Shown here: positions 23,162-64,000 of the stretch, in pieces | Layout of the letters: each line of letters starts with the position of its first letter | Position numbering within the stretch: the stretch's first letter is position 1 | Source: Bdellovibrionales bacterium | GTDB taxonomy: Bacteria > Bdellovibrionota > Bdellovibrionia > Bdellovibrionales > UBA1609 | NCBI GenBank assembly: GCA_965261545.1 | Contig: CBDHDF010000007.1 | Span: forward strand, 288,001 to 352,000 | Length of the DNA stretch: 64,000 nt | Direction: 5' to 3' | Notes under the pieces: generated by a model | The model's input: the letters and a program-made list of their open reading frames with translations, nothing else | Told to the model about the DNA's origin: nothing | The model's database searches: none | Translations under genes and position numbers: made by a program

Positions 23162-23412
23162 CATAGGTGTTCGTGGTTTTTTATTCTTTCATAGCAAGAC
23201 CTTTTTAGCCATATTCATTGATGTTTTTCGCCGTCGGTAGTTTGTGTCATAAATTTCATGGGAGAATATCTTGATCTTCTCTATCAAAATATTTAAATAC
23301 TTTTGAGATGAGCTTAGGAGATATTTGATAAAATCAGAGGCTAATAAGACGGTAACCTTAGCAACTCTTTGAAACGATGTGGAGTCATTTTGTTCCTTAT
23401 TGAGTTTAGTTC
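23162..23412 (-). mobile_element. Right-end fragment of another IS (probably IS4 family), interrupted at 23413
   Basis: Minus-strand open frame ending YRRRKTSMNMAKKVLL*; CAT-starting end abruptly truncates the ISNCY ORF. Confidence 0.5.
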
Positions 23413-25125
23413 GTAACATTCATGGGGGCGCCTTGCTTCCCCACCCACGCCCATGAATCTTATCTAGGCCCCCACTTCTTTGCACGAAGCAACTCGGTGG
23501 ACAGCTTCGCTGGTCTATATAATTGGCCTCTTTTAGTTACTCTGGACTTTTGATGGTATTTTTGTCATGTATGATTCCGATACAATAAAGGATAAAGCAA
23601 TAACATTATTGGAAGGTGATAAGATGAGTGGCCGTTGAATAGATTGGTAATTTTAATTCCGTGAAGTAACATGGTCTTGAGCTTTGGATCGAACCCACGC
23701 ATGTACCTGCACTCTGAGTGTATGGACGTATAGTAAGTTGACCTATTTTCGCATTATTTTAGAATTTATGGCAAAATCCCAAGGCTCTAGTTTTATCACC
23801 TTCTTTTTTTCTAACAGAAAGGAGGAGTCATGTGGATATTATTTATAGTTCTGTTTGTGGAATAGATGTTCATCAACATATGTTGATGTGTACGATTGTC
23901 AAAGTGGAAGACGGTAAGAAGAAGTTTTTCACAAAAGAGTTCAAGAATTTTCCAAAAAATTTTCCTAGAATGCGCTCTTGGATGAAGCCACATAAGGTTG
24001 AGAGAGTTCTTTTTGAGAGCACAGGGATTTATTGGAATTCTTTATACGATGATTTGACAGAAAAAGGTTATGAAGTAGATGTTATCAATGCCTTTCATGT
24101 CAAAAATATTACTGGTAAAAAAACTGACGTGTTGGATAGCCAGTGGATTGCAGAGCTTGGTGCTTGTGGTCTTCTAAGAGCTAGCTTCATTCCTCCACGT
24201 GAGATTCGTTCTATTAGACTTTTGGCTCGTTATCGTACAAAAACGATCCGCCAAATATCTTCGGAACAAAATCGTATGTATAAGGTTCTTGAATATTCAG
24301 GCATTCGTTTAACCTATGCAATGTCTAAAGCTGACTGCGTATCTGGTATGGCCATGATTCGTGCCATAGCTAATGGAGAGAGATCAGTTTCTAAATTGAT
24401 GTCTCTTGCCAGAGGGTCTTTACGTCAAAAGACCGAAGAATTTTCTTACGCCCTGTCGGGAAAGATGACGGAAGAAAATCGTTTTGTTCTTCAACGCATT
24501 CTTGATCGAATAGATTTTTTGAAAAAAGAATGCTCTCAAATTGAAGAAGAACTTTTCATTCGTATGAAACCCTATGAAAGGCAGTGGCATCTACTCCAGA
24601 CTATACCTGGAATTGACGAATTAAGTGCAGCGCTTTTGATTGCAGAAATAGGAGGCAATGTGAAGTCTTTTAAAAATAAAGGAAATTTTTGCTCCTGGAT
24701 GGGGATTTGCCCATCCAATAATGAGAGCGCAGGAAAAAAAGTCTTCACGAACGAGGAAAGCGAACACATATGTGAAATCGTTGGTATGTGAGATGGCCAA
24801 TAGTGCTATTAAGACGAATTCACAATTCAAAGGCAAATACCAATCACTTGTTATAAGGCGTGGGCACAAGAGATCAGTGATTGCCGTTGGTCACAAAATG
24901 ATGGGAGTTGTTTATTCAGTCATAAGTAATGACACCCCCTACAAAGACCCTGGAATTGACTATGAAAAGCTCATGGTGAAAAAAAATGCACCAAGGTGGA
25001 TTAGAGCGTTAAAAAAGTATGATTTCATGTAATGTAGGATGATTTAAAAACTCGGACATTTGAAAAAATTCGAAGAACGGATAGTGGATTCGTGCGTCCA
25101 AACTACCCCGGAGATTCATAGTAAC
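23413..25125 (+). mobile_element. IS110-family element, copy 1 (transposase frameshifted)
   Basis: Bounded by GTAAC at both ends; near-identical to 55399-57107; A7 instead of A9 near 24734. Confidence 0.95.
23832..25032 (+). pseudogene. IS110 recombinase, frameshifted
   Basis: Split into 23832-24791 and 24721-25032 at the poly-A run. Confidence 0.88.
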
Positions 25126-25172
25126 TCTTTGAAACGATGTGGAGTCATTTTGTTCCTTATTGAGTTTAGTTC
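25126..25172 (+). repeat. 47-bp duplicate of the left flank (23366-23412) trapped between IS110 copies 1 and 2
   Basis: TCTTTGAAACGATG...GAGTTTAGTTC is identical in both places. Confidence 0.95.
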
Positions 25173-26881
25173 GTAACATTCATGGGGGCGCCTTGCTTCC
25201 CCACCCACGCCCATGAATCTTATCTAGGCCCCCACTTCTTTGCACGAAGCAACTCGGTGGACAGCTTCGCTGGTCTATATAATTGGCCTCTTTTAGTTAC
25301 TCTGGACTTTTGATGGTATTTTTGTCATGTATGATTCCGATACAATAAAGGATAAAGCAATAACATTATTGGAAGGTGATAAGATGAGTGGCCGTTGAAT
25401 AGATTGGTAATTTTAATTCCGTGAAGTAACATGGTCTTGAGCTTTGGATCGAACCCACGCATGTACCTGCACTCTGAGTGTATGGACGTATAGTAAGTTG
25501 ACCTATTTTCGCTTTAGAATTTATGGCAAAATCCCAAGGCTCTAGTTTTATCACCTTCTTTTTTTCTAACAGAAAGGAGGAGTCATGTGGATATTATTTA
25601 TAGTTCTGTTTGTGGAATAGATGTTCATCAACATATGTTGATGTGTACGATTGTCAAAGTGGAAGACGGTAAGAAGAAGTTTTTCACAAAAGAGTTCAAG
25701 AATTTTCCAAAAAATTTTCCTAGAATGCGCTCTTGGATGAAGCCACATAAGGTTGAGAGAGTTCTTTTTGAGAGCACAGGGATTTATTGGAATTCTTTAT
25801 ACGATGATTTGACAGAAAAAGGTTATGAAGTAGATGTTATCAATGCCTTTCATGTCAAAAATATTACTGGTAAAAAAACTGACGTGTTGGATAGCCAGTG
25901 GATTGCAGAGCTTGGTGCTTGTGGTCTTCTAAGAGCTAGCTTCATTCCTCCACGTGAGATTCGTTCTATTAGACTTTTGGCTCGTTATCGTACAAAAACG
26001 ATCCGCCAAATATCTTCGGAACAAAATCGTATGTATAAGGTTCTTGAATATTCAGGCATTCGTTTAACCTATGCAATGTCTAAAGCTGACTGCGTATCTG
26101 GTATGGCCATGATTCGTGCCATAGCTAATGGAGAGAGATCAGTTTCTAAATTGATGTCTCTTGCCAGAGGGTCTTTACGTCAAAAGACCGAAGAATTTTC
26201 TTACGCCCTGTCGGGAAAGATGACGGAAGAAAATCGTTTTGTTCTTCAACGCATTCTTGATCGAATAGATTTTTTGAAAAAAGAATGCTCTCAAATTGAA
26301 GAAGAACTTTTCATTCGTATGAAACCCTATGAAAGGCAGTGGCATCTACTCCAGACTATACCTGGAATTGACGAATTAAGTGCAGCGCTTTTGATTGCAG
26401 AAATAGGAGGCAATGTGAAGTCTTTTAAAAATAAAGGAAATTTTTGCTCCTGGATGGGGATTTGCCCATCCAATAATGAGAGCGCAGGAAAAAAAGTCTT
26501 CACGAACGAGGAAAGCGAAACACATATGTGAAATCGTTGGTATGTGAGATGGCCAATAGTGCTATTAAGACGAATTCACAATTCAAAGGCAAATACCAAT
26601 CACTTGTTATAAGGCGTGGGCACAAGAGATCAGTGATTGCCGTTGGTCACAAAATGATGGGAGTTGTTTATTCAGTCATAAGTAATGACACCCCCTACAA
26701 AGACCCTGGAATTGACTATGAAAAGCTCATGGTGAAAAAAAATGCACCAAGGTGGATTAGAGCGTTAAAAAAGTATGATTTCATGTAATGTAGGATGATT
26801 TAAAAACTCGGACATTTGAAAAAATTCGAAGAACGGATAGTGGATTCGTGCGTCCAAACTACCCCGGAGATTCATAGTAAC
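25173..26881 (+). mobile_element. IS110-family element, copy 2 (transposase frameshifted), right end fused to the IS66 left TIR
   Basis: ...GATTCATA-GTAAC-TATTCAGGGGGTG junction; A7 run plus one extra A. Confidence 0.95.
25587..26788 (+). pseudogene. IS110 recombinase, frameshifted
   Basis: Split into 25587-26531 and 26528-26788. Confidence 0.88.
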
Positions 26882-27772
26882 TATTCAGGGGGTGCCGCAT
26901 TAATTCGAACAATTTTTTTAAAAAAAGTATAAAAATTCTTGACAAGTTTTTGAAGCAAACGACCTCTTTCATTTGTTCTTTATCGAATATGTTCCTGCAT
27001 ATGCCTTAAACTCTCTGAGAGCCATAGTATTGAAAGATTGTGAAACATAGGTCGCGGGGGGCACTTCTCATTCCTTTTGCTTCTTAGAACGAATCCTAGT
27101 GCATTTTTTTTAATGAAAAAAAGGCATGTTAATATTTTCATAAGGTAAGTATGAAAATAGAAATATTGACGTGTCTTCAGCCATAAATAAAATCAGGAAG
27201 CTTCTTAAGAAAGAGAAGTCCCTTTCTCCCGCTTTTATTGTGGCCATTGAGTTGTTGATCAAAATCATCACTATTCTAGTAAATCAAAAAAAATTAAATA
27301 GTCAAAACAGTAGTATTGCCCCTTCTCAAGATCCGAATGGCCCTAAAAAGAAACCTAAGGAAGAAACTGGTAAGAAGCCAGGAGGACAACCCGGACACGA
27401 AGGAGCTACTTTAAAACCCGTGGATACTCCAGACAAGGTGGAGTTCATTTCTATTAATAAAGAGGAACTTCCTCCAGGTGATTACATTTCTTCTGGAGTT
27501 GAAAAGCGTCAAGTATTTGAGGTAGACCTTTCTGTGCATGTCACGGAGTATCAAGGAGAAATCCTCGAAGACCAAGATGGGAATCAGTGGGTTGCAGGTT
27601 TTCCAGAAGGAATCAATAACCCAACTCAATATGGCCCTTCTGTGAAAGCTCACTCAGTTTATATGTCCCAGTTTCAGTTAATCCCTCATCTTCGAGTCGC
27701 AAGTTACTTTAATCAATGGGGTCTATCGCTTGCTGGATCTACGGTACACAATTTTAACAAATCTGCCTTTGA
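26877..27772 (+). mobile_element. Truncated IS66-family element (left part)
   Basis: Matches the element starting at 58807 up to ...TGCCTTTGA; 1-nt deletion near the start codon. Confidence 0.92.
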
Positions 27773-27941
27773 TGTTAGGCGCCAATTAAAATTTGAGGGA
27801 AAAAGCTACCGATTGAAGGAAGCTTCAAACCGACTTGTCAAGATAAAAAATTAAAGGTAGGGTGAGCCCATCTTGTCAGATCGCCCTAAATGGCCTGGTT
27901 TGCCCGCCCACAAATGGCCTGGTTTAACCCGCCCATCGGGG
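27773..27941 (+). mobile_element. istB: IS21-family remnant: IstB C-terminus and right end
   Basis: FEGKSYRLKEA...* followed by two tandem ~24-bp repeats AAATGGCCTGGTTT..CCCGCCCA, as typical of IS21 ends. Confidence 0.7.
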
Positions 27942-28924
27942 TTAACTCACCAAAAGCATCTTCAATTTTCCACAATTCTTTGTAGTTGATAATAATCTCA
28001 TCTGCCGTCAAGTCTTTGACATTTGTAAGGACGGCAAAAAAACCATCAATTTTTTCATCTAATTCTATTTGTTCTGCATTTAATTCAGGTTTTTTATTTT
28101 TGTCGTCAGCCATCTTTACATATTTCTTATAACCTTTATTGGAAACAAAAGTACTAGACTGAACACCTTTAGAAGATAGTTTTCCTTCGATCTTTTCAAG
28201 AAGGGATTCTCTAGATTTTTTATCTCTCTCTGCTCTTTTCCTAGACCAAGTCACAATACATCTATGCCCCCCATGGTCTGTTTCGTAAACAGCAAGCTCA
28301 TTCTCATATACCCAGCTAAAACGATTTAAATCATAGACCTCTTGTTTCTTTTCTTTTTTTAAAGATCCAAGCTTCATACCAACAATAAACTCGCTTTGAT
28401 CCTCACTGAGTTTGTCAGTATTAGCCTTTGATAAAAGCCCCCTATCAGCCACAAAAATGAAACGGCGTACATTAAACTTTTTTCTCATTTTATCAACAAT
28501 ATCTGAAAGCGTCTTGCCTTCAAAAGTATTACCAGGGAAAACCTCAAAACCTAAAGGGATGCCATCCCGATTCACCAACAAACCAAAGACAACTTGGGTG
28601 CAGTCTGATCGTCTCTCTTTACTATAGCCAAATTGACGAAGTTTCCCTAAGTCTGTTCTTGTACTCTCGAAGCGTAAGGTTGTTAAATCATACAACACAA
28701 TGTCTACTTGGAAATTAAATAAATCTCGCCCCACCCAATAAAGCGAGTTCTCTATTTCATCCTTATGGGAGGCAAGTAAGTCCATAGACCGATAAATATG
28801 CTGGAGACTCAAATCACCCTTAATCATGTCTGGGTAAAAAGATTTTTGCCAATACTCAAAAACCTTTAACTTGGAACTAGGAGCAATAAATCGGCTGGCA
28901 ACTAAGGTAAAAATCACCTTACAT
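27942..28924 (-). mobile_element. IS1634-family element, internal/distal part of the minus-strand copy
   Basis: Reverse complement of part of the 29105-30766 transposase; truncated at 27942. Confidence 0.9.
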
Positions 28925-30837
28925 CCCGAGTTTGACAGCAGCATCTGCGTTAAAATGCGAAATTTCCAGAAATTGGGGTTGTACTGAAATATAATGGTAG
29001 CTGCTGGAAAAATTAAAATTGACGTAAAAAAAGTGTAGAAAACAAAATAGGATTTTATCGTTTTAAATATTGATATATCATAGAAATATGTAGAAAATAT
29101 CCTCATGTACATCCAAACGACTAAAAACTCAAAAGGTCAGTGCTACTACCACCTTGTGGAGTCCTACAGAGAAAAAGGCAAATCCAAAAAACGCATGCTC
29201 ATGTCCTTAGGTAAGGCTGGAGAAGGAGGAGAGGATAAGATTAATAGTTTGGCGCAGGCCGTATCCCGCCACCGAGAGCTTCTCACTGTGAGTCAATTGG
29301 CTAAGGAGCTTTACATCGAAGAGACTTTCATTTTGGGTCCCTTGCTGATTTTACAAAAGTTGTTTGATCAACTGGGTATCAATAAGACCCTCAAAGACAT
29401 AAAAGATTCTCATGAGAAAGTTCAATTTGATTTATGTAAGGTGATTTTTACCTTAGTTGCCATCCGATTTATTGCTCCTAGTTCCAAGTTAAAGGTTTTT
29501 GAGTATTGGCAAAAATCTTTTTACCCAGACATGATTAAGGGTGATTTGAGTCTCCAGCATATTTATCGGTCTATGGACTTACTTGCCTCCCATAAGGATG
29601 AAATAGAGAACTCGCTTTATTGGGTGGGGCGAGATTTATTTAATTTCCAAGTAGACATTGTGTTGTATGATTTAACAACCTTACGCTTCGAGAGTACAAG
29701 AACAGACTTAGGGAAACTTCGTCAATTTGGCTATAGTAAAGAGAGACGATCAGACTGCACCCAAGTTGTCTTTGGTTTGTTGGTGAATCGGGATGGCATC
29801 CCTTTAGGTTTTGAGGTTTTCCCTGGTAATACTTTTGAAGGCAAGACGCTTTCAGATATTGTTGATAAAATGAGAAAAAAGTTTAATGTACGCCGTTTCA
29901 TTTTTGTGGCTGATAGGGGGCTTTTATCAAAGGCTAATACTGACAAACTCAGTGAGGATCAAAGCGAGTTTATTGTTGGTATGAAGCTTGGATCTTTAAA
30001 AAAAGAAAAGAAACAAGAGGTCTATGATTTAAATCGTTTTAGCTGGGTATATGAGAATGAGCTTGCTGTTTACGAAACAGACCATGGGGGGCATAGATGT
30101 ATTGTGACTTGGTCTAGGAAAAGAGCAGAGAGGGATAAAAAATCTAGAGAATCCCTTCTTGAAAAGATCGAAGGAAAACTATCTTCTAAAGGTGTTCAGT
30201 CTAGTACTTTTGTTTCCAATAAAGGTTATAAGAAATATGTAAAGATGGCTGACGACAAAAATAAAAAACCTGAATTAAATGCAGAACAAATAGAATTAGA
30301 TGAAAAAATTGATGGTTTTTTTGCCGTCCTTACAAATGTCAAAGACTTGACGGCAGATGAGATTATTATCAACTACAAAGAATTGTGGAAAATTGAAGAT
30401 GCTTTTGGTGAGTTAAAAGGGACTTTGAAAACACGTCCTGTTTTCCATTGGACAGACCAGAGGATTATTGGACATTTAACTCTATGCTTTTTAACTTATC
30501 TTTGTGAGGCCCACCTTACAAAATGTTTAAGAGATAAGAAGATGAACCTAAAAAGCCCAGCCATAGGCATTGGTCATGTTAAAGAGCGACCTTTAACTGT
30601 TGTAGAGGCCATGAGGGAACTCAAGGAAGTTAGGGCTATCCCTGTTAAAATTCGTGATCAAGTCATTTGGACCCGCACAGATATCACTGGCAATGCCAAC
30701 TCCTTATTTAAAGCCGCAGGCGTCCCCATCCCTCCCAGAATCCTTAATGCCCACAAGTGTGGATAAACAAAATACAACTATATGCGTTAATCCTTTAATA
30801 TCATTCGTTTGACGCAGATGCTGCTGTCAAACTCGGG
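28925..30837 (+). mobile_element. Complete IS1634-family element (1913 bp)
   Basis: 26-bp perfect TIR CCCGAGTTTGACAGCAGCATCTGCGT; flanked by a 248-bp direct repeat (28677-28924 and 30838-31085). Confidence 0.93.
29105..30766 (+). CDS. IS1634-family transposase
   Basis: LVESYR, YDLTT..FE, FGYSKE.R.D..QV, VADRGL, YK.LWKIEDAF..LK..L..RPVFHW. Confidence 0.93.
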   Translation: MYIQTTKNSKGQCYYHLVESYREKGKSKKRMLMSLGKAGEGGEDKINSLAQAVSRHRELLTVSQLAKELYIEETFILGPLLILQKLFDQLGINKTLKDIKDSHEKVQFDLCKVIFTLVAIRFIAPSSKLKVFEYWQKSFYPDMIKGDLSLQHIYRSMDLLASHKDEIENSLYWVGRDLFNFQVDIVLYDLTTLRFESTRTDLGKLRQFGYSKERRSDCTQVVFGLLVNRDGIPLGFEVFPGNTFEGKTLSDIVDKMRKKFNVRRFIFVADRGLLSKANTDKLSEDQSEFIVGMKLGSLKKEKKQEVYDLNRFSWVYENELAVYETDHGGHRCIVTWSRKRAERDKKSRESLLEKIEGKLSSKGVQSSTFVSNKGYKKYVKMADDKNKKPELNAEQIELDEKIDGFFAVLTNVKDLTADEIIINYKELWKIEDAFGELKGTLKTRPVFHWTDQRIIGHLTLCFLTYLCEAHLTKCLRDKKMNLKSPAIGIGHVKERPLTVVEAMRELKEVRAIPVKIRDQVIWTRTDITGNANSLFKAAGVPIPPRILNAHKCG

Positions 30838-54609: not shown

Positions 54610-55391
54610 GTGAGCACAAGACACAGTTTACGAACAATGATACTATTTACGGTCCCGTTCAAAGTCGTCGCATGGGATGGAGCCTAGGAATCAATCTTTT
54701 AGGACACGAACATAAAGTTTGCTCTTATAACTGTCCCTACTGTGAATTGGGAGAAAGTAAACTTCGCCTGAATCAAGTGGGGCGAACGATCAAATTTCAT
54801 CCCCCCGAGGTTATCAATGATCGATTTGTAAAAAAACTCTCTGATATCCAGCTCTCACCTCATCCCATAGAATCCATATGCAATTCAGGTTATGGTGAAC
54901 CCACCTTGTATCATCCTTTTAAAGAGGTGAGTGAAATGATCTACCATTCACGGAACGAAATTATGGGAAATGCTAAACTCCATCTCCTTACAAATGGAGC
55001 TCATTTTGATCAAAAAAAGGTTCTTGCAAGTCTTCCCTACTATGATTTTATTCATGTAAAGTTTGATGCGGGAGACGATCAAATTTTAAAACAGATCAAT
55101 GCTCCCCTTGTTCGGACCAATATCAACAAAATTCTCCACCAACTCCGAAGTATCGATCATTTAATTCTACAATCTATGTTTGTGACAGGGAGTGTGGACA
55201 ATACCACAAACGCTGCTGTTGAGTCTTGGATGGAGGCTGTGGGCATTGTTCAACCCCAGGTGGTTCATCTTTACACCCTAGATAGAAAGCCCACAGACGC
55301 CACTATTCTCAAGGTGGACGAAGACATCCTCGATATTATTGGAACGAAGCTTCGGCGCAAGACTCAAATAGAGTATCATGTGTTTTACTAA
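54606..55391 (+). CDS. Radical SAM protein
   Basis: YGPV.SRR.G.SLGIN, CSYNCPYC, GEPTL, LTNG; ATGA overlap with the upstream gene. Confidence 0.88.
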   Translation: MSEHKTQFTNNDTIYGPVQSRRMGWSLGINLLGHEHKVCSYNCPYCELGESKLRLNQVGRTIKFHPPEVINDRFVKKLSDIQLSPHPIESICNSGYGEPTLYHPFKEVSEMIYHSRNEIMGNAKLHLLTNGAHFDQKKVLASLPYYDFIHVKFDAGDDQILKQINAPLVRTNINKILHQLRSIDHLILQSMFVTGSVDNTTNAAVESWMEAVGIVQPQVVHLYTLDRKPTDATILKVDEDILDIIGTKLRRKTQIEYHVFY

Positions 55392-55595
55392 AATTCTTGT
55401 AACATTCATGGGGGCGCCTTGCTTCCCCACCCACGCCCATGAATCTTTCTAGGCCCCCACTTCTTTGCACGAAGCAACTCGGTGGACAGCTTCGCTGGTC
55501 TATATAATTGGCCTCTTTTAGTTACTCTGGACTTTTGATGGTATTTTTGTCATGTATGATTCCGATACAATAAAGGATAAAGCAATAACATTATT

Positions 55596-55790
55596 GGAAG
55601 GTGATAAGATGAGTGGCCGTTGAATAGATTGGTAATTTTAATTCCGTGAAGTAACATGGTCTTGAGCTTTGGATCGAACCCACGCATGTACCTGCACTCT
55701 GAGTGTATGGACGTATAGTAAGTTGACCTATTTTCGCTTTAGAATTTATGGCAAAATCCCAAGGCTCTAGTTTTATCACCTTCTTTTTTT
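55596..55790 (+). ncRNA. Candidate IS110 bridge/seek RNA (equivalents at 23611-23810, 25371-25565, 57300-57494 and minus 63261-63455)
   Basis: Hand-folded closing stem GAAGGTGATAA/TTATCACCTTC followed by a U-tract; two internal loops with target-like and donor-like sequences; G-U pairs favour the + strand. Confidence 0.65.
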
Positions 55791-55811
55791 CTAACAGAAA
55801 GGAGGAGTCAT

Positions 55812-57014
55812 GTGGATATTATTTATAGTTCTGTTTGTGGAATAGATGTTCATCAACATATGTTGATGTGTACGATTGTCAAAGTGGAAGACGGTAAGAA
55901 GAAGTTTTTCACAAAAGAGTTCAAGAATTTTCCAAAAAATTTTCCTAGAATGCGCTCTTGGATGAAGCCACATAAGGTTGAGAGAGTTCTTTTTGAGAGC
56001 ACAGGGATTTATTGGAATTCTTTATACGATGATTTGACAGAAAAAGGTTATGAAGTAGATGTTATCAATGCCTTTCATGTCAAAAATATTACTGGTAAAA
56101 AAACTGACGTGTTGGATAGCCAGTGGATTGCAGAGCTTGGTGCTTGTGGTCTTCTAAGAGCTAGCTTCATTCCTCCACGTGAGATTCGTTCTATTAGACT
56201 TTTGGCTCGTTATCGTACAAAAACGATCCGCCAAATATCTTCGGAACAAAATCGTATGTATAAGGTTCTTGAATATTCAGGCATTCGTTTAACCTATGCA
56301 ATGTCTAAAGCTGACTGCGTATCTGGTATGGCCATGATTCGTGCCATAGCTAATGGAGAGAGATCAGTTTCTAAATTGATGTCTCTTGCCAGAGGGTCTT
56401 TACGTCAAAAGACCGAAGAATTTTCTTACGCCCTGTCGGGAAAGATGACGGAAGAAAATCGTTTTGTTCTTCAACGCATTCTTGATCGAATAGATTTTTT
56501 GAAAAAAGAATGCTCTCAAATTGAAGAAGAACTTTTCATTCGTATGAAACCCTATGAAAGGCAGTGGCATCTACTCCAGACTATACCTGGAATTGACGAA
56601 TTAAGTGCAGCGCTTTTGATTGCAGAAATAGGAGGCAATGTGAAGTCTTTTAAAAATAAAGGAAATTTTTGCTCCTGGATGGGGATTTGCCCATCCAATA
56701 ATGAGAGCGCAGGAAAAAAAAAGTCTTCACGAACGAGGAAAGCGAACACATATGTGAAATCGTTGGTATGTGAGATGGCCAATAGTGCTATTAAGACGAA
56801 TTCACAATTCAAAGGCAAATACCAATCACTTGTTATAAGGCGTGGGCACAAGAGATCAGTGATTGCCGTTGGTCACAAAATGATGGGAGTTGTTTATTCA
56901 GTCATAAGTAATGACACCCCCTACAAAGACCCTGGAATTGACTATGAAAAGCTCATGGTGAAAAAAAATGCACCAAGGTGGATTAGAGCGTTAAAAAAGT
57001 ATGATTTCATGTAA
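55812..57014 (+). CDS. IS110-family DEDD recombinase/transposase (400 aa)
   Basis: GIDVH, FESTG.YW, KTD..DS..IA, TIPGI, AEIG, G..P...ESAG; AGGAGG RBS with GTG start. Confidence 0.96.
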   Translation: MDIIYSSVCGIDVHQHMLMCTIVKVEDGKKKFFTKEFKNFPKNFPRMRSWMKPHKVERVLFESTGIYWNSLYDDLTEKGYEVDVINAFHVKNITGKKTDVLDSQWIAELGACGLLRASFIPPREIRSIRLLARYRTKTIRQISSEQNRMYKVLEYSGIRLTYAMSKADCVSGMAMIRAIANGERSVSKLMSLARGSLRQKTEEFSYALSGKMTEENRFVLQRILDRIDFLKKECSQIEEELFIRMKPYERQWHLLQTIPGIDELSAALLIAEIGGNVKSFKNKGNFCSWMGICPSNNESAGKKKSSRTRKANTYVKSLVCEMANSAIKTNSQFKGKYQSLVIRRGHKRSVIAVGHKMMGVVYSVISNDTPYKDPGIDYEKLMVKKNAPRWIRALKKYDFM

Positions 57015-57102
57015 TGTAGGATGATTTAAAAACTCGGACATTTGAAAAAATTCGAAGAACGGATAGTGGATTCGTGCGTCCAAACTACCCCGGAGATTCA
57101 TA

Positions 57103-58811
57103 GTAACATTCATGGGGGCGCCTTGCTTCCCCACCCACGCCCATGAATCTTTCTAGGCCCCCACTTCTTTGCACGAAGCAACTCGGTGGACAGCTTCGCT
57201 GGTCTATATAATTGGCCTCTTTTAGTTACTCTGGACTTTTGATGGTATTTTTGTCATGTATGATTCCGATACAATAAAGGATAAAGCAATAACATTATTG
57301 GAAGGTGATAAGATGAGTGGCCGTTGAATAGATTGGTAATTTTAATTCCGTGAAGTAACATGGTCTTGAGCTTTGGATCGAACCCACGCATGTACCTGCA
57401 CTCTGAGTGTATGGACGTATAGTAAGTTGACCTATTTTCGCTTTAGAATTTATGGCAAAATCCCAAGGCTCTAGTTTTATCACCTTCTTTTTTTCTAACA
57501 GAAAGGAGGAGTCATGTGGATATTATTTATAGTTCTGTTTGTGGAATAGATGTTCATCAACATATGTTGATGTGTACGATTGTCAAAGTGGAAGACGGTA
57601 AGAAGAAGTTTTTCACAAAAGAGTTCAAGAATTTTCCAAAAAATTTTCCTAGAATGCGCTCTTGGATGAAGCCACATAAGGTTGAGAGAGTTCTTTTTGA
57701 GAGCACAGGGATTTATTGGAATTCTTTATACGATGATTTGACAGAAAAAGGTTATGAAGTAGATGTTATCAATGCCTTTCATGTCAAAAATATTACTGGT
57801 AAAAAAACTGACGTGTTGGATAGCCAGTGGATTGCAGAGCTTGGTGCTTGTGGTCTTCTAAGAGCTAGCTTCATTCCTCCACGTGAGATTCGTTCTATTA
57901 GACTTTTGGCTCGTTATCGTACAAAAACGATCCGCCAAATATCTTCGGAACAAAATCGTATGTATAAGGTTCTTGAATATTCAGGCATTCGTTTAACCTA
58001 TGCAATGTCTAAAGCTGACTGCGTATCTGGTATGGCCATGATTCGTGCCATAGCTAATGGAGAGAGATCAGTTTCTAAATTGATGTCTCTTGCCAGAGGG
58101 TCTTTACGTCAAAAGACCGAAGAATTTTCTTACGCCCTGTCGGGAAAGATGACGGAAGAAAATCGTTTTGTTCTTCAACGCATTCTTGATCGAATAGATT
58201 TTTTGAAAAAAGAATGCTCTCAAATTGAAGAAGAACTTTTCATTCGTATGAAACCCTATGAAAGGCAGTGGCATCTACTCCAGACTATACCTGGAATTGA
58301 CGAATTAAGTGCAGCGCTTTTGATTGCAGAAATAGGAGGCAATGTGAAATCTTTTAAAAATAAAGGAAATTTTTGCTCCTGGATGGGGATTTGCCCATCC
58401 AATAATGAGAGCGCAGGAAAAAAAAAGTCTTCACGAACGAGGAAAGCGAACACATATGTGAAATCGTTGGTATGTGAGATGGCCAATAGTGCTATTAAGA
58501 CGAATTCACAATTCAAAGGCAAATACCAATCACTTGTTATAAGGCGTGGGCACAAGAGATCAGTGATTGCCGTTGGTCACAAAATGATGGGAGTTGTTTA
58601 TTCAGTCATAAGTAATGACACCCCCTACAAAGACCCTGGAATTGACTATGAAAAGCTCATGGTGAAAAAAAATGCACCAAGGTGGATTAGAGCGTTAAAA
58701 AAGTATGATTTCATGTAATGTAGGATGATTTAAAAACTCGGACATTTGAAAAAATTCGAAGAACGGATAGTGGATTCGTGCGTCCAAACTACCCCGGAGA
58801 TTCATAGTAAC
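57103..58811 (+). mobile_element. IS110-family element, copy 4 (intact, head-to-tail with copy 3)
   Basis: Junction GATTCATA-GTAAC-ATTCATGG at 57103; right end joined to the IS66 left TIR. Confidence 0.96.
57516..58718 (+). CDS. IS110-family recombinase/transposase
   Basis: Same protein sequence as 55812-57014. Confidence 0.96.
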   Translation: MDIIYSSVCGIDVHQHMLMCTIVKVEDGKKKFFTKEFKNFPKNFPRMRSWMKPHKVERVLFESTGIYWNSLYDDLTEKGYEVDVINAFHVKNITGKKTDVLDSQWIAELGACGLLRASFIPPREIRSIRLLARYRTKTIRQISSEQNRMYKVLEYSGIRLTYAMSKADCVSGMAMIRAIANGERSVSKLMSLARGSLRQKTEEFSYALSGKMTEENRFVLQRILDRIDFLKKECSQIEEELFIRMKPYERQWHLLQTIPGIDELSAALLIAEIGGNVKSFKNKGNFCSWMGICPSNNESAGKKKSSRTRKANTYVKSLVCEMANSAIKTNSQFKGKYQSLVIRRGHKRSVIAVGHKMMGVVYSVISNDTPYKDPGIDYEKLMVKKNAPRWIRALKKYDFM

Positions 58812-60521
58812 TATTCAGGGGGTGCCGCATTAATTCGAACAATTTTTTTAAAAAAAGTATAAAAATTCTTGACAAGTTTTTGAAGCAAACGACCTCTTTC
58901 ATTTGTTCTTTATCGAATATGTTCCTGCATATGGCTTAAACTCTCTGAGAGCCATAGTATTGAAAGATTGTGAAACATAGGTCGCGGGGGGCACTTCTCA
59001 TTCCTTTTGCTTCTTAGAACGAATCCTAGTGCATTTTTTTTAATGAAAAAAAGGCATGTTAATATTTTCATAAGGTAAGTATGAAAATAGAAAATATTGA
59101 CGTGTCTTCAGCCATAAATAAAATCAGGAAGCTTCTTAAGAAAGAGAAGTCCCTTTCTCCCGCTTTTATTGTGGCCATTGAGTTGTTGATCAAAATCATC
59201 ACTATTCTAGTAAATCAAAAAAAATTAAATAGTCAAAACAGTAGTATTGCCCCTTCTCAAGATCCGAATGGCCCTAAAAAGAAACCTAAGGAAGAAACTG
59301 GTAAGAAGCCAGGAGGACAACCCGGACACGAAGGAGCTACTTTAAAACCCGTGGATACTCCAGACAAGGTGGAGTTCATTTCTATTAATAAAGAGGAACT
59401 TCCTCCAGGTGATTACATTTCTTCTGGAGTTGAAAAGCGTCAAGTATTTGAGGTAGACCTTTCTGTGCATGTCACGGAGTATCAAGGAGAAATCCTCGAA
59501 GACCAAGATGGGAATCAGTGGGTTGCAGGTTTTCCAGAAGGAATCAATAACCCAACTCAATATGGCCCTTCTGTGAAAGCTCACTCAGTTTATATGTCCC
59601 AGTTTCAGTTAATCCCTCATCTTCGAGTCGCAAGTTACTTTAATCAATGGGGTCTATCGCTTGCTGGATCTACGGTACACAATTTTAACAAATCTGCCTT
59701 TGAGGCTCTGGAAGCTTTTGAGGAGTGGGCAAAGGAAACTCTTCTGAACTCACCTTTGATTCATGCTGACGAAACTGGAGTGAATGTTAATGGGAAGAGG
59801 CTGTGGTTTCACCTCTTGTCCAATGATACTGTGGTTCTCTATCAGGTGGACGAAAAAAGAGGCGCAGAGGCTATGGATCGCATGGGAATTCTTCCAAAAT
59901 ACACAGGGATTGTTTGTCATGACCATTGGAAACCTTATTATACATATACTTCCTGCATTCATGCCCTTTGCAATGCGCACCATTTAAGGGAGCTTCAAAG
60001 AGCTTGGGAGCAAGATGATCAAAAATGGGCAAAAGAAATGAAGTCTCTTTTAGAGACAATAAACAAAGAGGTGCACGATACGCAGAACCAATGCCTTTCA
60101 CAAGACCGAATTGAATATTACAAAGAGAAATATCGAAATATTCTCTTCGAAGGGGAAAAGGAATCTCCATTAATGGAGAGGACAGAGAAAAAAAAGAAGG
60201 GAAAGGTTAAACAATCCAAATCTAGAAATTTACTAGATCGACTGAGAAACTTTGAAGATGATACCTTGCTATTTATGAAGGACCCCATAGTTCCATTTAC
60301 GAATAATATAGCAGAAAATGATCTGAGAATGACCAAAGTTCAGCAGAAAATATCTGGGTGCTTTCGTTCGTTGATGGGAGCCAAGACATTTTGTAGAAAC
60401 CGAAGCTTTCTCCTGACTTGCCAGAAAAATGGCATAGAACCTAAAGATGCTCTAAATATGCTATTTCAAGGAAAACTTCCCTCATTTATGACTCGAATTC
60501 GCCCACCCCCTGAATAGTTAC
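58807..60521 (+). mobile_element. Complete IS66-family element, single-ORF type (1715 bp)
   Basis: 18-bp perfect TIR GTAACTATTCAGGGGGTG; GTAA termini and 8-bp TSD are IS66 hallmarks. Confidence 0.93.
59081..60517 (+). CDS. IS66-family transposase (TnpC-like)
   Basis: NSS.APS.D, GGQPGH.G, HADETG, HDHW, C.AHHLREL, FTNN.AE.DLR. Confidence 0.94.
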   Translation: MKIENIDVSSAINKIRKLLKKEKSLSPAFIVAIELLIKIITILVNQKKLNSQNSSIAPSQDPNGPKKKPKEETGKKPGGQPGHEGATLKPVDTPDKVEFISINKEELPPGDYISSGVEKRQVFEVDLSVHVTEYQGEILEDQDGNQWVAGFPEGINNPTQYGPSVKAHSVYMSQFQLIPHLRVASYFNQWGLSLAGSTVHNFNKSAFEALEAFEEWAKETLLNSPLIHADETGVNVNGKRLWFHLLSNDTVVLYQVDEKRGAEAMDRMGILPKYTGIVCHDHWKPYYTYTSCIHALCNAHHLRELQRAWEQDDQKWAKEMKSLLETINKEVHDTQNQCLSQDRIEYYKEKYRNILFEGEKESPLMERTEKKKKGKVKQSKSRNLLDRLRNFEDDTLLFMKDPIVPFTNNIAENDLRMTKVQQKISGCFRSLMGAKTFCRNRSFLLTCQKNGIEPKDALNMLFQGKLPSFMTRIRPPPE

Positions 60522-61051
60522 TATGAATCTCCGGGGTAGTTTGGACGCACGAATCCACTATCCGTTCTTCGAATTTTTTCAAATGTCCGAGTTTTTAAAT
60601 CATCCTACATTACATGAAATCATACTTTTTTAACGCTCTAATCCACCTTGGTGCATTTTTTTTCACCATGAGCTTTTCATAGTCAATTCCAGGGTCTTTG
60701 TAGGGGGTGTCATTACTTATGACTGAATAAACAACTCCCATCATTTTGTGACCAACGGCAATCACTGATCTCTTGTGCCCACGCCTTATAACAAGTGATT
60801 GGTATTTGCCTTTGAATTGTGAATTCGTCTTAATAGCACTATTGGCCATCTCACATACCAACGATTTCACATATGTGTTCGCTTTCCTCGTTCGTGAAGA
60901 CTTTTTTTTTCCTGCGCTCTCATTATTGGATGGGCAAATCCCCATCCAGGAGCAAAAATTTCCTTTATTTTTAAAAGACTTCACATTGCCTCCTATTTCT
61001 GCAATCAAAAGCGCTGCACTTAATTCGTCAATTCCAGGTATAGTCTGGAGT

Positions 61052-62468
61052 CAATGCCGTTTCCTTAAGAAAAATCTCTTGAAATTATTAGATAAATCGA
61101 CAAGAATAAGACTTGTTTTATTTTACACCCAACCCTCAACCAAGGAGTAAGTCACATGCAATCCAATATTGATCTCGAAAGCCCCCAAATGACGAGTTCG
61201 CGTCACAGATGACCATTTTATTCTACCAAAACTTGATTCTTCCTTCAAGCCAGAGCACCTTGTCGATCCAGAAAAACAAAAAAGGAATCGAAAATTTAAT
61301 CCTCAAATTTTCTTTTTTACCATTATCTATCTTATTTCAGGAACAAATTACGAAGGCTACCAAATCGCTCTTAAGACGGTATGGACTCATTTTGGTGACC
61401 TGCTTCTCATGCCAGTCAAAAGCAGTCTCAGCAAGATACGTCAAAGTATTTCTTACCTATTTTTCAAAGATATCTTTGAATCTCTGATTACAGACTACGA
61501 ACCATTGAGAAAAACGTTTCATGGTTTTTATATCTATGCCATAGATGGCGACCAATTAGCACTTCCTCGCTCTAAAGATCTTTTAAAGGAGGGTTATTGT
61601 GGGTACCCTTGCCCAAATGAGATGGAAACTCATTTCTTACGTATGTATCTATCTCATGCTTATGACGTTTTATCGGGTGTGACAAAGAATCTTTGCTTTT
61701 CTCCCGCTCTCAACGAAATCGCCAATGCTATTCAAATGATAGGTAGTTTTGAGAGTAATAGCATAACTCTCTACGATAGGCTTTATTTATCTACAGAGAT
61801 TATTAAGGCCCATGCTCAAGCCAGTAACTTCTTTATTGCGCGTTGTAAGCGAGGCTCTACTTTTATCCCCATCGTAAATTTATTTAATGGCCCAGGTTGG
61901 TATTCACAAATGGTTATTGAGGGGGTGGTCATTCATCTCTATAAGTATAAAAACCCAAAGACTGGGGAGTTCTCTGTTTTGGCCACTAATCTTCCGCATG
62001 GCTCCTTGGACAAGAAGGATATGGTTGCTCTTTACTCTCGTCGTTGGGAAATAGAAACGACATTTCGTGATTTTACATCGACAATGAAAATGGAGCAGTG
62101 GCACTCAACAAGCCTTAATGGAATATTGCAAGAGCTGTATTCTTATTTTTGGCTCTTCAATTATACAAAGATTCAAATGAGCATAAATGAGGATGAAGAC
62201 AGTGTGAATCAGTTGGTAAAAAATGACTACAAAAAACCTAACTTTAAACTGATTCTTGATTTCATAATGGATAGCATCCCCCTTTTTGTTGCGGGGCTCT
62301 ATCAGAAATTTAGGAAGCAGATAAAGTTGCTGATGAAGATTTCAATGGAGAAGAGGAGGCACTTCAAAAGAAGCTATGAAAGGTCTATCAAAAGGGCTGG
62401 GAGTTCTTTTAAAAGAAATAGCTTAACGCAGAGGCAGAGGGGTGTGGTGGCTTAAGGAAACGGCATTG
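61052..62468 (+). mobile_element. IS4-family element, copy 2 (1417 bp)
   Basis: 18-bp TIR; 10-bp TSD AGTCTGGAGT at 61042-61051 and 62469-62478. Confidence 0.96.
61193..62455 (+). CDS. IS4-family transposase (frame open from 61193; first ATG only at 61409)
   Basis: KRNRKF N-terminal motif is in frame upstream of the ATG; AIDGD, YDR, RWEIE. Confidence 0.85.
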   Translation, partial: RVRVTDDHFILPKLDSSFKPEHLVDPEKQKRNRKFNPQIFFFTIIYLISGTNYEGYQIALKTVWTHFGDLLLMPVKSSLSKIRQSISYLFFKDIFESLITDYEPLRKTFHGFYIYAIDGDQLALPRSKDLLKEGYCGYPCPNEMETHFLRMYLSHAYDVLSGVTKNLCFSPALNEIANAIQMIGSFESNSITLYDRLYLSTEIIKAHAQASNFFIARCKRGSTFIPIVNLFNGPGWYSQMVIEGVVIHLYKYKNPKTGEFSVLATNLPHGSLDKKDMVALYSRRWEIETTFRDFTSTMKMEQWHSTSLNGILQELYSYFWLFNYTKIQMSINEDEDSVNQLVKNDYKKPNFKLILDFIMDSIPLFVAGLYQKFRKQIKLLMKISMEKRRHFKRSYERSIKRAGSSFKRNSLTQRQRGVVA

Positions 62469-63671
62469 AGTCTGGAGTAGATGCCACTGCCTTTCATAGG
62501 GTTTCATACGAATGAAAAGTTCTTCTTCAATTTGAGAGCATTCTTTTTTCAAAAAATCTATTCGATCAAGAATGCGTTGAAGAACAAAACGATTTTCTTC
62601 CGTCATCTTTCCCGACAGGGCGTAAGAAAATTCTTCGGTCTTTTGACGTAAAGACCCTCTGGCAAGAGACATCAATTTAGAAACTGATCTCTCTCCATTA
62701 GCTATGGCACGAATCATGGCCATACCAGATACGCAGTCAGCTTTAGACATTGCATAGGTTAAACGAATGCCTGAATATTCAAGAACCTTATACATACGAT
62801 TTTGTTCCGAAGATATTTGGCGGATCGTTTTTGTACGATAACGAGCCAAAAGTCTAATAGAACGAATCTCACGTGGAGGAATGAAGCTAGCTCTTAGAAG
62901 ACCACAAGCACCAAGCTCTGCAATCCACTGGCTATCCAACACGTCAGTTTTTTTACCAGTAATATTTTTGACATGAAAGGCATTGATAACATCTACTTCA
63001 TAACCTTTTTCTGTCAAATCATCGTATAAAGAATTCCAATAAATCCCTGTGCTCTCAAAAAGAACTCTCTCAACCTTATGTGGCTTCATCCAAGAGCGCA
63101 TTCTAGGAAAATTTTTTGGAAAATTCTTGAACTCTTTTGTGAAAAACTTCTTCTTACCGTCTTCCACTTTGACAATCGTACACATCAACATATGTTGATG
63201 AACATCTATTCCACAAACAGAACTATAAATAATATCCACATGACTCCTCCTTTCTGTTAGAAAAAAAGAAGGTGATAAAACTAGAGCCTTGGGATTTTGC
63301 CATAAATTCTAAAGCGAAAATAGGTCAACTTACTATACGTCCATACACTCAGAGTGCAGGTACATGCGTGGGTTCGATCCAAAGCTCAAGACCATGTTAC
63401 TTCACGGAATTAAAATTACCAATCTATTCAACGGCCACTCATCTTATCACCTTCCAATAATGTTATTGCTTTATCCTTTATTGTATCGGAATCATACATG
63501 ACAAAAATACCATCAAAAGTCCAGAGTAACTAAAAGAGGCCAATTATATAGACCAGCGAAGCTGTCCACCGAGTTGCTTCGTGCAAAGAAGTGGGGGCCT
63601 AGAAAGATTCATGGGCGTGGGTGGGGAAGCAAGGCGCCCCCATGAATGTTACAAATTCTTTTGATTCCCTT

Positions 63672-64000
63672 TTAATTTCTTTGTGAATAGTAGGGGTGAG
63701 AGTTTCTCATCGTTGAAGGTAAGCCTCCAATGGCGGCAGGCGCTCCCGTGAGGGATTGGCCATTGAAGCCTATTCCCATAAAGGGTGTAAAGCCGCCTCG
63801 TGCCTCTTTGTCCAGGCCGTAGTAGAGGCCCAAAACAAAGTCGAGAGGGAAGTGATAGCCAATGGTTGTACTCAGCTTAAACTCTGCTCCTGTCCCTAAA
63901 AAAGAGCGATTCATGGAGACTCTTTCGTAGAGCTGGGTATCTCCATTGGCAAAAAAACCGTCCACCGCCACATAGTCTATAAAAAGACCTCCGTGAAGTT
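63672..64000 (-). CDS. C-terminal part of an outer-membrane beta-barrel protein (partial)
   Basis: Amphipathic strands GTGAEFKLSTTIGY.FPLDFVLGLYYG; frame appears to continue beyond the window end. Confidence 0.55.
   Translation of the reverse strand, partial: LHGGLFIDYVAVDGFFANGDTQLYERVSMNRSFLGTGAEFKLSTTIGYHFPLDFVLGLYYGLDKEARGGFTPFMGIGFNGQSLTGAPAAIGGLPSTMRNSHPYYSQRN

Follow-up and report, generated by a model that had tools for sequence, protein, structure and literature searches.

What leads an IS110-family insertion sequence to both ends of an IS66-family element, in mirror orientation? The question is raised by a composite locus in the window, the stretch of 64,000 nucleotides from a Bdellovibrionales bacterium that was analysed here. 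Between two copies of an 8-bp duplication, the locus holds two tandem IS110 copies, a single-ORF IS66 element and an inverted IS110 copy split by an IS4-family element (Table 1). The original prediction held that both IS66 ends are capped in mirror orientation, that AAATTCTT lies outside the caps, and that taking out the IS110 copies restores TSD-IS66-TSD, and our reading agrees on each point. The joint that it reported, ...GGAGATTCATA|GTAAC|TATTCAGGGGGTG, has been recovered by reading the window and by motif searches at 26877, 58807 and, inverted, 60517-60521 (3-5 matches for each motif against 0.01-0.04 expected from shuffles).

Two insertion sequences and their families

Table 1. Features of the two capped loci (window positions)
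Feature	Position	Strand	Basis or remark
Second capped locus	23366..26876	+	adjoins IS66 left tip at 26877
IS66 TSD, 8 bp, AAATTCTT, left copy	55391..55398	.	sequence reading
IS110 copy 1, 1704-bp unit	55399..57102	+	Pfam, NCBIfam, catalytic-residue alignment
65-bp module in IS110 left end	55481..55545	+	~95% identical to another IS's leader stretch
Predicted bridge-RNA core, copy 1 left end	55615..55728	+	homologous positions and compensatory pairs
Loop-1 closing stem GGCCG.../...GGTC	within 55615..55728	+	prediction
RTG-like slot TTGAATAG	55620-55627	+	clearly homologous position in 5/7 elements
LTG-like segment GTAACAT	55651-55657	+	homologous position in 7/7 elements
Candidate RDG TGAGCTTT	55663-55670	+	complement of off-target site
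Conserved anchor	55675	+	alignment
LDG-like segment ATAGTAA	55715-55721	+	homologous position in 7/7 elements
IS110 copy 1 transposase ORF, 400 aa	55812-57014		Pfam, NCBIfam
IS110 copy 2, head-to-tail with copy 1	57103..58806	+	ORF 57516-58718
IS66-family element, 1715 bp	58807..60521	+	ORF 59081-60517, 478 aa; Pfam, NCBIfam
IS66 terminal inverted repeats starting GTAACTATTCAGGGGGTG	58807 and, inverted, 60504-60521		
IS110 copy 3, right end adjoining right IS66 tip	60522..63652	-	interrupted 61051-62469
IS4-family element, 1419 bp, within IS110 copy 3	61051..62469	+	ORF 61409-62455
IS66 TSD AAATTCTT, right copy	63653..63660	.	sequence reading

The two copies of the left cap differ by one mismatch in 1704 bp, and copy 3 without its IS4-family element has no mismatch to copy 1. 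The limits of the IS110 unit are ambiguous within five bases because GTAAC is present at each end, and the joint between copies 1 and 2 (57092-57122) reads as expected for a circle (donor) junction. The IS4-family element is flanked by an 8-bp duplication, GTCTGGAG, at 61043-61050 and 62470-62477, and yields 191 BLAST pieces genome-wide. The insertion sequence whose leader matches the 65-bp module of the IS110 left end occurs about 50 times in the genome. The second capped locus is made up of a 47-bp flank (23366-23412), an IS110 (23413-25120), GTAAC, an exact duplicate of the 47-bp flank (25126-25172) and a further IS110 (25173-26876), and the IS66 that starts at 26877 is truncated after ~897 bp.

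The intact, identical 400-aa transposase is encoded by nine IS110 copies and contains both domains of the family (PF01548, E 4.8e-23; PF02371, E 4e-21; NCBIfam NF033542, 245.5 bits, cut-off 140). Residues D12, E62, D99, D102 and S299 align with the catalytic residues of IS621 in 8wt6 (E 2.7e-15; chain numbering +2), and the serine motif is G-x2-P-x4-S-A, not S-G. The ends read GTAAC.../...TTCATA+GTAAC, with GTAAC/AA alone shared at both joints; there are no terminal inverted repeats and no multi-base duplication beyond this short core. The long non-coding region, with its putative guide segments, occupies 413 nt upstream of the gene, as expected of the IS110 family.

The target element belongs to the IS66 family by its transposase (PF03050, DDE_Tnp_IS66, E 1.6e-49; NF033517, 285.2 bits, cut-off 180). 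Members of this family duplicate 8 bp of target and have inverted repeats starting GTAA; here, both tips read GTAACTATTCAGGGGGTG and 8-bp duplications are present at the window locus and at three other composites. Canonical IS66 elements also carry the accessory genes tnpA and tnpB. Both are absent from the 1715-bp element, which has one 478-aa ORF and is therefore a single-ORF member.

Membership of the IS1111 group has also been considered for the IS110 element. IS1111 subterminal inverted repeats are 11-13 bp long, with 7-bp and 3-bp extensions. The short subterminal repeat found here, ATGAATCT / AGATTCAT, forms a 10-nt pairing including a G.U, with a right extension of 3 nt before the core and a left extension of ~37 nt. 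This left extension, the mere 88 bp downstream of the stop codon and the upstream position of the non-coding region led us to reject the IS1111 group, for which a long non-coding region lying downstream of tnp, together with long subterminal repeats, has been described (PMC11187229).

Insertion at IS66 tips across the assembly

All joint and tip counts come from one repeat-rich 4.3-Mb assembly, in which the IS110 right end forms 35 joints: 15 with IS66 tips, 8 tandem and 12 with other sequences, mostly look-alike sites. At the tips, the right end is placed against GTAACTATTCAGGG in constant register and orientation (15/15). These capped tips are spread over ~12 IS66 copies and include left and right tips, the right end always adjoining CTATTCAGG. 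The eight head-to-tail joints all lie within arrays terminating at an IS66 tip, and at each of them an abutted right-left junction is present in the chromosome. Taken across the genome, the joints support the reading that the IS110 homes to left and right IS66 tips with specificity for site and orientation. No cap is present at 18 of the 33 IS66 tips, and of 32 exact tip motifs, 14 have the IS110 right end before them, as does one variant. In all four complete composites, the caps are enclosed by the 8-bp duplications of IS66, and at least 13 distinct outer flanks are found over five contigs. Caps vary by locus, with one, two or four copies of differing alleles, on one tip or on both.

The right ends do join the terminal inverted repeat at an identical position, as had been claimed, but the insertion point is the AA of GTAA inside the tip and not a point beside it. 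Off-target joints also put the crossover in AA (targets GCAAC|TC.., TTTAAC|CT.. and GAAAA|GC..); the IS-derived GT stays on the right-end side, and the base after AA is that of the target. The left-hand GT is probably also read. There are 36 genomic GTAACTATTCA sites, of which 16 are occupied, including one of three non-IS66 sites, while AACTATTCA without GT is found at 12 sites and occupied at none (Fisher p=0.004), a GT effect confounded with IS66-tip status, since non-IS66 sites by themselves give 1/3 against 0/12 (p=0.2). On the outer side, base-specific signal is absent (0.07 bits at -1, 27 unique flanks), and the flanks are only AT-rich, as they are at uncapped tips. The largely one-sided recognition that had been postulated therefore holds.

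A predicted guide RNA and its alternatives

The putative guides have been mapped by comparing the 413-nt left end with 12 distant relatives, each of <=50% identity, using seven elements for guide positions and 13 sequences for the scaffold alignment. In described bridge RNAs, the left guides are same-sense and the right guides complementary, core included (PMC11208160; PMC11208158). In all seven elements, left flank and core recur as a same-sense copy 24-28 nt before the conserved anchor, and right end and core do so 29-43 nt after it; the complement of core and right flank is found at -48 to -55 in five of the seven, this IS110 among them. Compensatory changes are seen in 8 of 13 predicted scaffold pairs. 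The slot at 55620-55627 is complementary to CTATTCAG in the tip, and a 7-nt complement within a 10-nt slot has a chance of ~2.4e-4. The off-target site AAAGCTCA, at IS110 position ~1551, perfectly complements the candidate RDG. The RTG-like slot can pair with the core only if an A is bulged out or an A.A mismatch is tolerated. Because L040 has the same UUGAA in the 5' part of this slot and L038 a similar sequence, the slot could in part be a conserved linker and not a guide specific to the tip. Rfam gave no match at E<=1 for 55300-59100, a simple scan of the tandem joint found no sigma-70-like promoter, and the folding energy of the left end is ordinary (MFE z -0.90).

We hold with good confidence that a recently active 1704-bp IS110 with a DEDD/Ser recombinase inserts with site and orientation specificity into the terminal repeat of the single-ORF IS66, guided by a bridge-type RNA. 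From sequence, we infer the targeting mechanism, in which this RNA would be transcribed from the left end and guide the reaction, and movement of the IS110 via a circle. Target choice would be made by the RNA encoded in the 413-nt left end. Recombination takes place within the tip's GTAA, at its AA, and the IS110 right end therefore always adjoins ...CTATTCAGGGGG. The 3'-side guide (..GUAAC..) would span GT and core alone, and the recognised site would therefore be GT-AA-CTATTCA, about 11 bases, nearly all within IS66. The one-sidedness would be due to the left-target guide matching GTAAC alone, and the outer 8-bp IS66 duplication would not be read. Since the IS110 right end terminates in ...AGT-AA, each insertion rebuilds GT-AA-CTATTCA at the new right joint; a target rebuilt at the same tip can in turn take a further insertion, giving head-to-tail arrays. 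Look-alike and donor-like joints, together with flank-plus-IS110 duplications, are best explained as recombination with only one matching half-site. The capped IS66 ends are probably disabled.

We consider it unlikely that there is no dedicated target guide and that the donor-binding loop or the protein recognises the tip as a pseudo-donor with a half match. The IS110 donor junction AGT-AA-CATTCATGGGGG does resemble the tip GT-AA-CTATTCAGGGGG, the tip being similar to the IS110's own donor right half, and ~18 of 21 positions are alike between left end and tip, given two indels that offset each other. Several off-target joints are donor-like: one, GCTCATGG, is similar to the left end, and another, GTATAGTAAG|TTGACC, is DNA that codes for the LDG-like segment. 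The LTG-like segment AGUAACAU fits the donor junction better than the tip, and half-match recombination has been reported for IS621 (10.64898/2026.08.31.748434). On the other hand, the slot at 55620-55627 forms seven contiguous Watson-Crick pairs with the tip (CTATTCA) and five with the left end (ATTCA), its position complements the right flank in relatives with unrelated targets, and the occupied non-IS66 site GTAACTATTCAttatc has the tip-specific T without the G-run.

It is rather improbable that the IS110 is a dependent passenger of IS66, with a left tip converged on the IS66 terminus and composites moved by the IS66 transposase. The left tip GTAAC-ATTCATGGGGGCGCC is similar to the terminus GTAACTATTCA-GGGGGTGCC, and by such convergence a capped IS66 would regain a usable outer end. 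If this were true, both IS110+IS66 composites and double-tip hairpins of 50 bp would be mobilised by the IS66 transposase, with the outer 8-bp duplications as the result, and the lopsidedness of the guide (2 nt + core + 7-8 nt) would let the IS110 re-hit the rebuilt site and form arrays.

That the many IS110-IS66 joints stem mostly from a few composites carried as units by the IS66 transposase, the IS110 hitch-hiking with its left tip GTAAC-ATTCATGGGGG as surrogate end, is very unlikely. This would equally predict the outer position of the 8-bp duplications, and 50-bp hairpins of two facing IS110 left tips are flanked by 8-bp direct repeats at three independent sites. These may just as well be scars left by deletion between the 9-bp CCCATGAAT repeats in two facing caps, however, and hitch-hiking is superfluous, since the IS110 also sits at a non-IS66 GTAACTATTCA site and at look-alike sites. 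The variation of caps in copy number (1, 2 or 4) and alleles, and the capping of either tip or both, also argue against it. Relatives of 40-47% identity that have other targets keep the architecture of the left end's first ~46 bp, and so this stretch was not borrowed from IS66.

An assembly or segmental-duplication artefact in this repeat-dense genome is hardly credible: hundreds of IS pieces are present, contig C1 may be a duplicate of C7 at ~115-119 kb since it has the same interrupted copy and then a tip, and public contigs break at repeats with no piece crossing the whole composite, but the 13 or more outer flanks on five contigs, the exact 8-bp duplication matches across composites and a contig of a second study that runs from IS110 right end to tip with 0 mismatches (IS66 side 18 nt, below the bridging rule) all oppose it.

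Comparison with known systems

Guided insertion into IS66 tips would make this genome a clean natural example of hyperparasitism between insertion sequences, with ~45% of IS66 tips capped, in which the IS110 gains a self-multiplying landing pad at no cost to the host. It would also offer a natural variant for bridge recombinase work, with specificity nearly all to the right of the core and a target that is rebuilt. The flank-plus-element duplications and donor-like insertions resemble recently described in vitro 'half-match' reactions. The original prediction knew of no IS66-targeting case, and our literature search likewise found no paper describing one, so that IS66 appears to be a new target for an IS110-family element; the kind of targeting is already known, however. 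In Pseudomonas putida H, IS1383 integrates into the inverted repeats of IS1384 (Muller, Lauf & Herrmann 2001, cited in PMC11208160), the former being listed as IS110 family and the latter as IS5 family (table, PMC5141477). There too, a member of the IS110 family has the terminal inverted repeat of a different insertion sequence as its specific target, but that target is of the IS5 family and here IS66.

The IS1111-group elements IS4321 and IS5075 target terminal repeats, 38 bp long, in transposons of the Tn21 family (Partridge & Hall 2003, cited in PMC11208160). They share with the present element a DEDD transposase and site- and orientation-specific entry into the terminal repeats of another transposon, which is seen here as 15 tips entered at a single position with a single orientation. 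Theirs is an IS1111-type organisation with a downstream non-coding region, whereas the present element has 413 nt upstream, a 400-aa protein and an IS66 target.

With IS621 the element shares a DEDD+Ser recombinase, a dinucleotide core, repeated-sequence targets and, as predicted here, a left-end guide RNA with same-sense left guides and complementary right guides (PMC11208160; PMC11208158). The proteins are only distantly similar, the core is CT in IS621 and AA here, and the IS621 target is REP rather than another insertion sequence. In IS621, LTG (50-58) lies 5' of RTG (77-80) (PMC11208158), whereas in the clade of the present element the putative right-target guide comes first, 5' of the one for the left target, the same guide order as in IS1111-type seekRNAs (PMC11187229). 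IS621 recognition covers 7 + core + 2-5, compared with a predicted ~2 nt left + core + 7-8 nt right. Finally, ISPa11, ISPpu9, ISPpu10 and ISKpn4, which target REP or attC, also use an abundant, selectively neutral repeat as a landing pad (PMC11187229; PMC12288879; 10.64898/2026.03.19.712850), but the landing pad here is a multiplying mobile element whose site is rebuilt on insertion.

IS110 at IS66 tips in the window and the assembly

The original prediction described an IS66 capped at both ends, with its duplication lying outside the IS110 copies. This anatomy of 55391-63660 is borne out by reading of the sequence and by three motif searches of the window, each of which gave 3-5 matches against 0.01-0.04 expected. 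The predicted joint between an IS110 right end and an IS66 tip at 26877 has also been found to be real by motif search and reading. The cap at 26877 is made of two IS110 copies, between which 47 bp of the upstream flank recur exactly. In the stretch 26877-30766 at this first locus, the IS66 is truncated after ~897 bp, and two other DDE_Tnp_1 transposase ORFs, 27886-29112(-) and 29105-30766(+), are located downstream of it.

Features of the capped locus, putative guide segments and mini-element sites
Feature	Position	Strand	Basis or remark
IS66 8-bp duplication AAATTCTT, left copy	55391-55398	.	direct reading of 55200-64000
IS66 8-bp duplication AAATTCTT, right copy	63653-63660	.	direct reading
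IS110 copy 1, 1704-bp unit starting GTAACATTCATGG	from 55399	+	reading and motif searches
IS110 copy 2	from 57103	+	sequence comparison; 1 mismatch to copy 1
IS66-type tip GTAACTATTCAGGGGGTG	starts 58807; inverted partner ends 60521	+ / -	motif search
IS110 copy 3, inverted	to 63652	-	split by IS4-family element; without that element, copy 1 exactly
IS4-family element, 1419 bp	61051-62469	.	inside copy 3; duplication GTCTGGAG
Putative right target guide (RTG) slot UUGAAUAG	55620-55627	+	seven Watson-Crick pairs and one G.U with CTATTCAG; core reached only with a bulged A
Putative left target guide (LTG) segment ..GAAGUAACAU..	55651-55657	+	agrees with target in GTAAC only
Candidate right donor guide (RDG) TGAGCTTT	55663-55670	+	imperfect pairing with left end; perfect with off-target AAAGCTCA inside IS110
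Putative left donor guide (LDG) segment AUAGUAA	55715-55721	+	position-homologous comparison
Mini-element sites	C6 3544; C3 20876; C10 576451; C2 233621; C11 725851; C2 289236		contig and position

The 400-aa ORF of the IS110 contains the domains PF01548 and PF02371 and scores 245.5 bits on the NCBIfam model 'IS110 family RNA-guided transposase' (cut-off 140). It matches IS621 (8wt6) with E 2.7e-15, and D12, E62, D99, D102, and S299 align opposite catalytic residues. The IS66 element is 1715 bp long and its sole ORF encodes a 478-aa IS66-family DDE transposase (PF03050; NF033517, 285.2 bits, cut-off 180), while the element interrupting copy 3 has been assigned to the IS4 family by domain and profile searches. 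Across the IS110 copies, the A-run of the transposase gene (56714-56722 in the window) has the length A9 in 14, A7 in 18, and A8 in 3. A9 gives the intact 400-aa ORF, and A7 or A8 results in a frameshift after residue ~306. These length differences reflect either real slippage or a homopolymer error of the assembly.

The three elements have been compared by BLAST with the 4.3-Mb, 11-contig assembly, in which the window is C7:288001-352000; this gave 105 pieces for IS110, 26 for IS66, and 191 for the IS4-family element, the most abundant repeat found here. The genome is extremely rich in IS, and nesting of insertions is common. The genomic IS110 copies were tabulated with their flanks, the check proposed with the original prediction, and provide 35 right-end joints. 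The sequence GTAACTATTCAGGG comes next in 15 of these (IS66 left and right tips alike), the element's own left end in 8, and other sequence in 12. All 8 head-to-tail joints are found within arrays of two to four copies ending at an IS66 tip. An IS110 right end precedes 14 of the 32 exact IS66 tip motifs and one G-to-T variant, leaving 18 tips bare, and no tip of the assembly is adjoined by an IS110 in the opposite orientation. A locus on contig C1 and the C7 locus at ~116 kb may be one assembly duplicate.

Both outer borders are readable in four composites, namely the one in the window and those at C7 211.5-216.7 kb, C10 189.6-193.0 kb, and C11 861.9-865.3 kb, and the IS66 8-bp duplication is located outside the caps in all four. 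The observation is confirmed, and the homing of this IS110 to IS66 ends is supported. Among the contigs of public sequencing runs, none spans the composite stretch of the window. Contigs of run X5, from a second study, match this IS66 and the 3' portion of the IS110 perfectly (window 58485-60105). One of them crosses the IS110 right end into the IS66 tip with 18 nt on the IS66 side and has not been counted as bridging.

Recognised site and crossover point

Of the 12 other joints, those with a target within an IS110 or with a second copy of the target close by reveal the sequence before insertion, and the crossover has been read from them. At such right-end joints the GT from the IS110 is kept and the base after AA comes from the target; the informative cases are GCAAC/TCTTTG, GCAAC/TCGG, TTTAAC/CTATGC, CAAAC/TACCCC, and GAAAA/GCTCATGG. 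At one matching left joint, the TT before AA is retained from the target. These retained bases point to strand exchange within the AA of GTAAC, the core.

The assembly contains 36 GTAACTATTCA sites (33 IS66 tips and 3 others), 16 of which are occupied. One occupied site is not an IS66, and its sequence departs from the tip directly after ...TTCA. None of the 12 AACTATTCA sites without a preceding GT is occupied (p=0.004), a contrast confounded with being an IS66 tip; at non-IS66 sites alone the GT effect gives p=0.2. In a flank table computed from genome coordinates, the 27 unique outer flanks hold 0.07 bits at -1 and farther out AT-richness only, a pattern also seen in the 17 bare-tip flanks. 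At -7, an A is found at 21 of 27 capped tips versus 8 of 17 bare ones (p=0.05). The occupied sites, the GT data, and the outer flanks argue for a recognised site of approximately GT-AA-CTATTCA, and the proposal that target recognition is largely one-sided holds.

Predicted guide RNA and relatives

No relatives above 50% identity with readable flanking DNA have been found in GTDB contigs, 40 related genomes, JGI metagenomes, or plasmids. A single-protein scan of GTDB contigs gave no close relative, and the best full-length match in an alignment-based GTDB scan was 34%. The best matches were 33% identical in the 40 related genomes (in 2 genomes) and 40.7% in plasmids, and JGI metagenome contigs contain relatives at 31-48%. 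ENA/Logan relatives at 74, 70, and 67% identity are known as proteins only (P0002-P0004). This element and twelve JGI relatives have a common left-end plan, formed by the core, C-NN-TCATG, a C-rich stretch, CATGAA, and finally a scaffold centred on the invariant anchor ...ACCC.... CATGAA is also the short subterminal repeat of the IS110 right end. Capture of the outermost 46 bp of the IS110 left end from an IS66-type MITE has been rejected, because the same left-end architecture is present in 40-47%-identical relatives with other targets. A 65-bp stretch of the left end (55481-55545; 57185-57249) is ~95% identical to the sequence just 5' of the ORF of another IS with ~50 copies. This module, which contains TATATAAT, may be a leader or promoter common to both ISs.

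RNAalifold on 13 sequences predicts a closing stem and the inner hairpin of a first loop, plus a second stem, and 8 of 13 predicted pairs are preserved by two-sided changes (e.g., GGCC/GGCC, GAUC/GAUC, CCCC/GGGG). The single-sequence fold of the left end is like that of shuffles (z -0.90), and per-sequence MFE folds are inconsistent with one another. An Rfam scan of 55300-59100 gave no matches and a promoter/terminator scan across the tandem IS110 joint no sites.

Guide positions have been compared in seven elements with readable joints, relative to the anchor (55675 here). In all seven, a same-sense copy of the left flank and core is located 24-28 nt 5' of the anchor, and a same-sense copy of the right end and core 29-43 nt 3' of it. 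The complement of the core and right flank is found at -48 to -55 in this element and in the JGI loci L037, L051, L041, and L040; it is limited to 5 nt in L036 and has one mismatch in L038. The RDG has no consistent position across the seven. Flank matching covers 3-6 nt on the left and 1-4 nt on the right in the relatives, and 2 and 7-8 nt in this element, so that its predicted total match is similar to theirs with the weight shifted rightward. The UUGAA of the RTG slot, common to L040 and like that of L038, may be partly linker.

By the published rule for bridge RNA, the bottom strand is the pairing partner of left guides and the top strand that of right guides, with the core taken in (PMC11208160; PMC11208158), and the guide segments of this element and its relatives conform to it. 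On the other hand, the guide order here (window 55620-55721, loci L036-L110; 395-455-aa-type IS110 clade), with the right-flank complement 5' of the left-flank match, is the reverse of that of IS621. It is the order of IS1111-type seekRNAs as given in PMC11187229, where a non-coding region upstream of the transposase, as seen here, is the IS110-type placement; the clade also has a short inverted repeat in subterminal position. Judging from these sequence features, the mechanism is probably bridge-RNA-guided.

Arrays, putative derived elements, and known systems

The IS110 right end ends ...AGT-AA. Insertion would therefore recreate GT-AA-CTATTCA at the new right joint and a capped tip would stay a target, which may be why arrays are found only at tips. 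Since insertion parts GTAA from the remainder of the IS66 repeat, capped IS66 ends are probably disabled. Tandem repeats of a flank piece plus IS110 also occur, with pieces of 47 bp (window 23366-26876) and 347 bp (twice, C7 226765-232573), and with 154-bp and 22-bp IS110 fragments as pieces (C7 121217-128203, C7 263185-270021). In every such repeat, a site that resembles the target only weakly and is located upstream of the element itself has been joined to that element's right end. Such products would be expected if only the donor half drove the recombination; 'half-match' activity of this sort is reported for IS621 in a 2026 preprint (10.64898/2026.08.31.748434).

Palindromes of 50 bp formed by two facing IS110 left tips (GTAAC...GTTAC) are present at C2 618570-618619, at C6 99928-99977, and in seven copies at C2 345-384 kb, flanked by direct repeats of 8 bp, one pair of which agrees at 7 of 8 positions. 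They may be what remains of doubly capped IS66 copies after a deletion by recombination between 9-bp CCCATGAAT repeats, or else miniature elements that an IS66-type transposase mobilises. In a mini-element of ~106-110 bp, ~55 bp separate the left-tip hairpin from a right end like that of IS110 (...ACATTCATA). The GTAAC sites that it precedes are a degenerate IS66 tip, a tip-like GTAACTGCTCAGGGGG motif, the left end of an IS110, and a site within an IS110, and the mini-element is probably a non-autonomous derivative.

IS110-family elements homing to repeats are well known from REP, attC, and the terminal repeats of the Tn21 family (IS4321/IS5075). The original prediction knew of no described IS66-targeting case, and full-text literature searches for IS110 with IS66 likewise returned no account of targeting to IS66 tips. 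Muller et al. in 2001 reportedly found that IS1383 has the inverted repeats of a second IS, IS1384, as its specific integration target. In the relevant part of PMC5141477, IS1383 is assigned to the IS110 family and IS1384 to the IS5 family. As here, an IS110-family element occupies the inverted repeats of another IS, but the victim belongs to the IS5 family there and to IS66 here. This kind of targeting is therefore already known, and the IS66-tip case is a further member.
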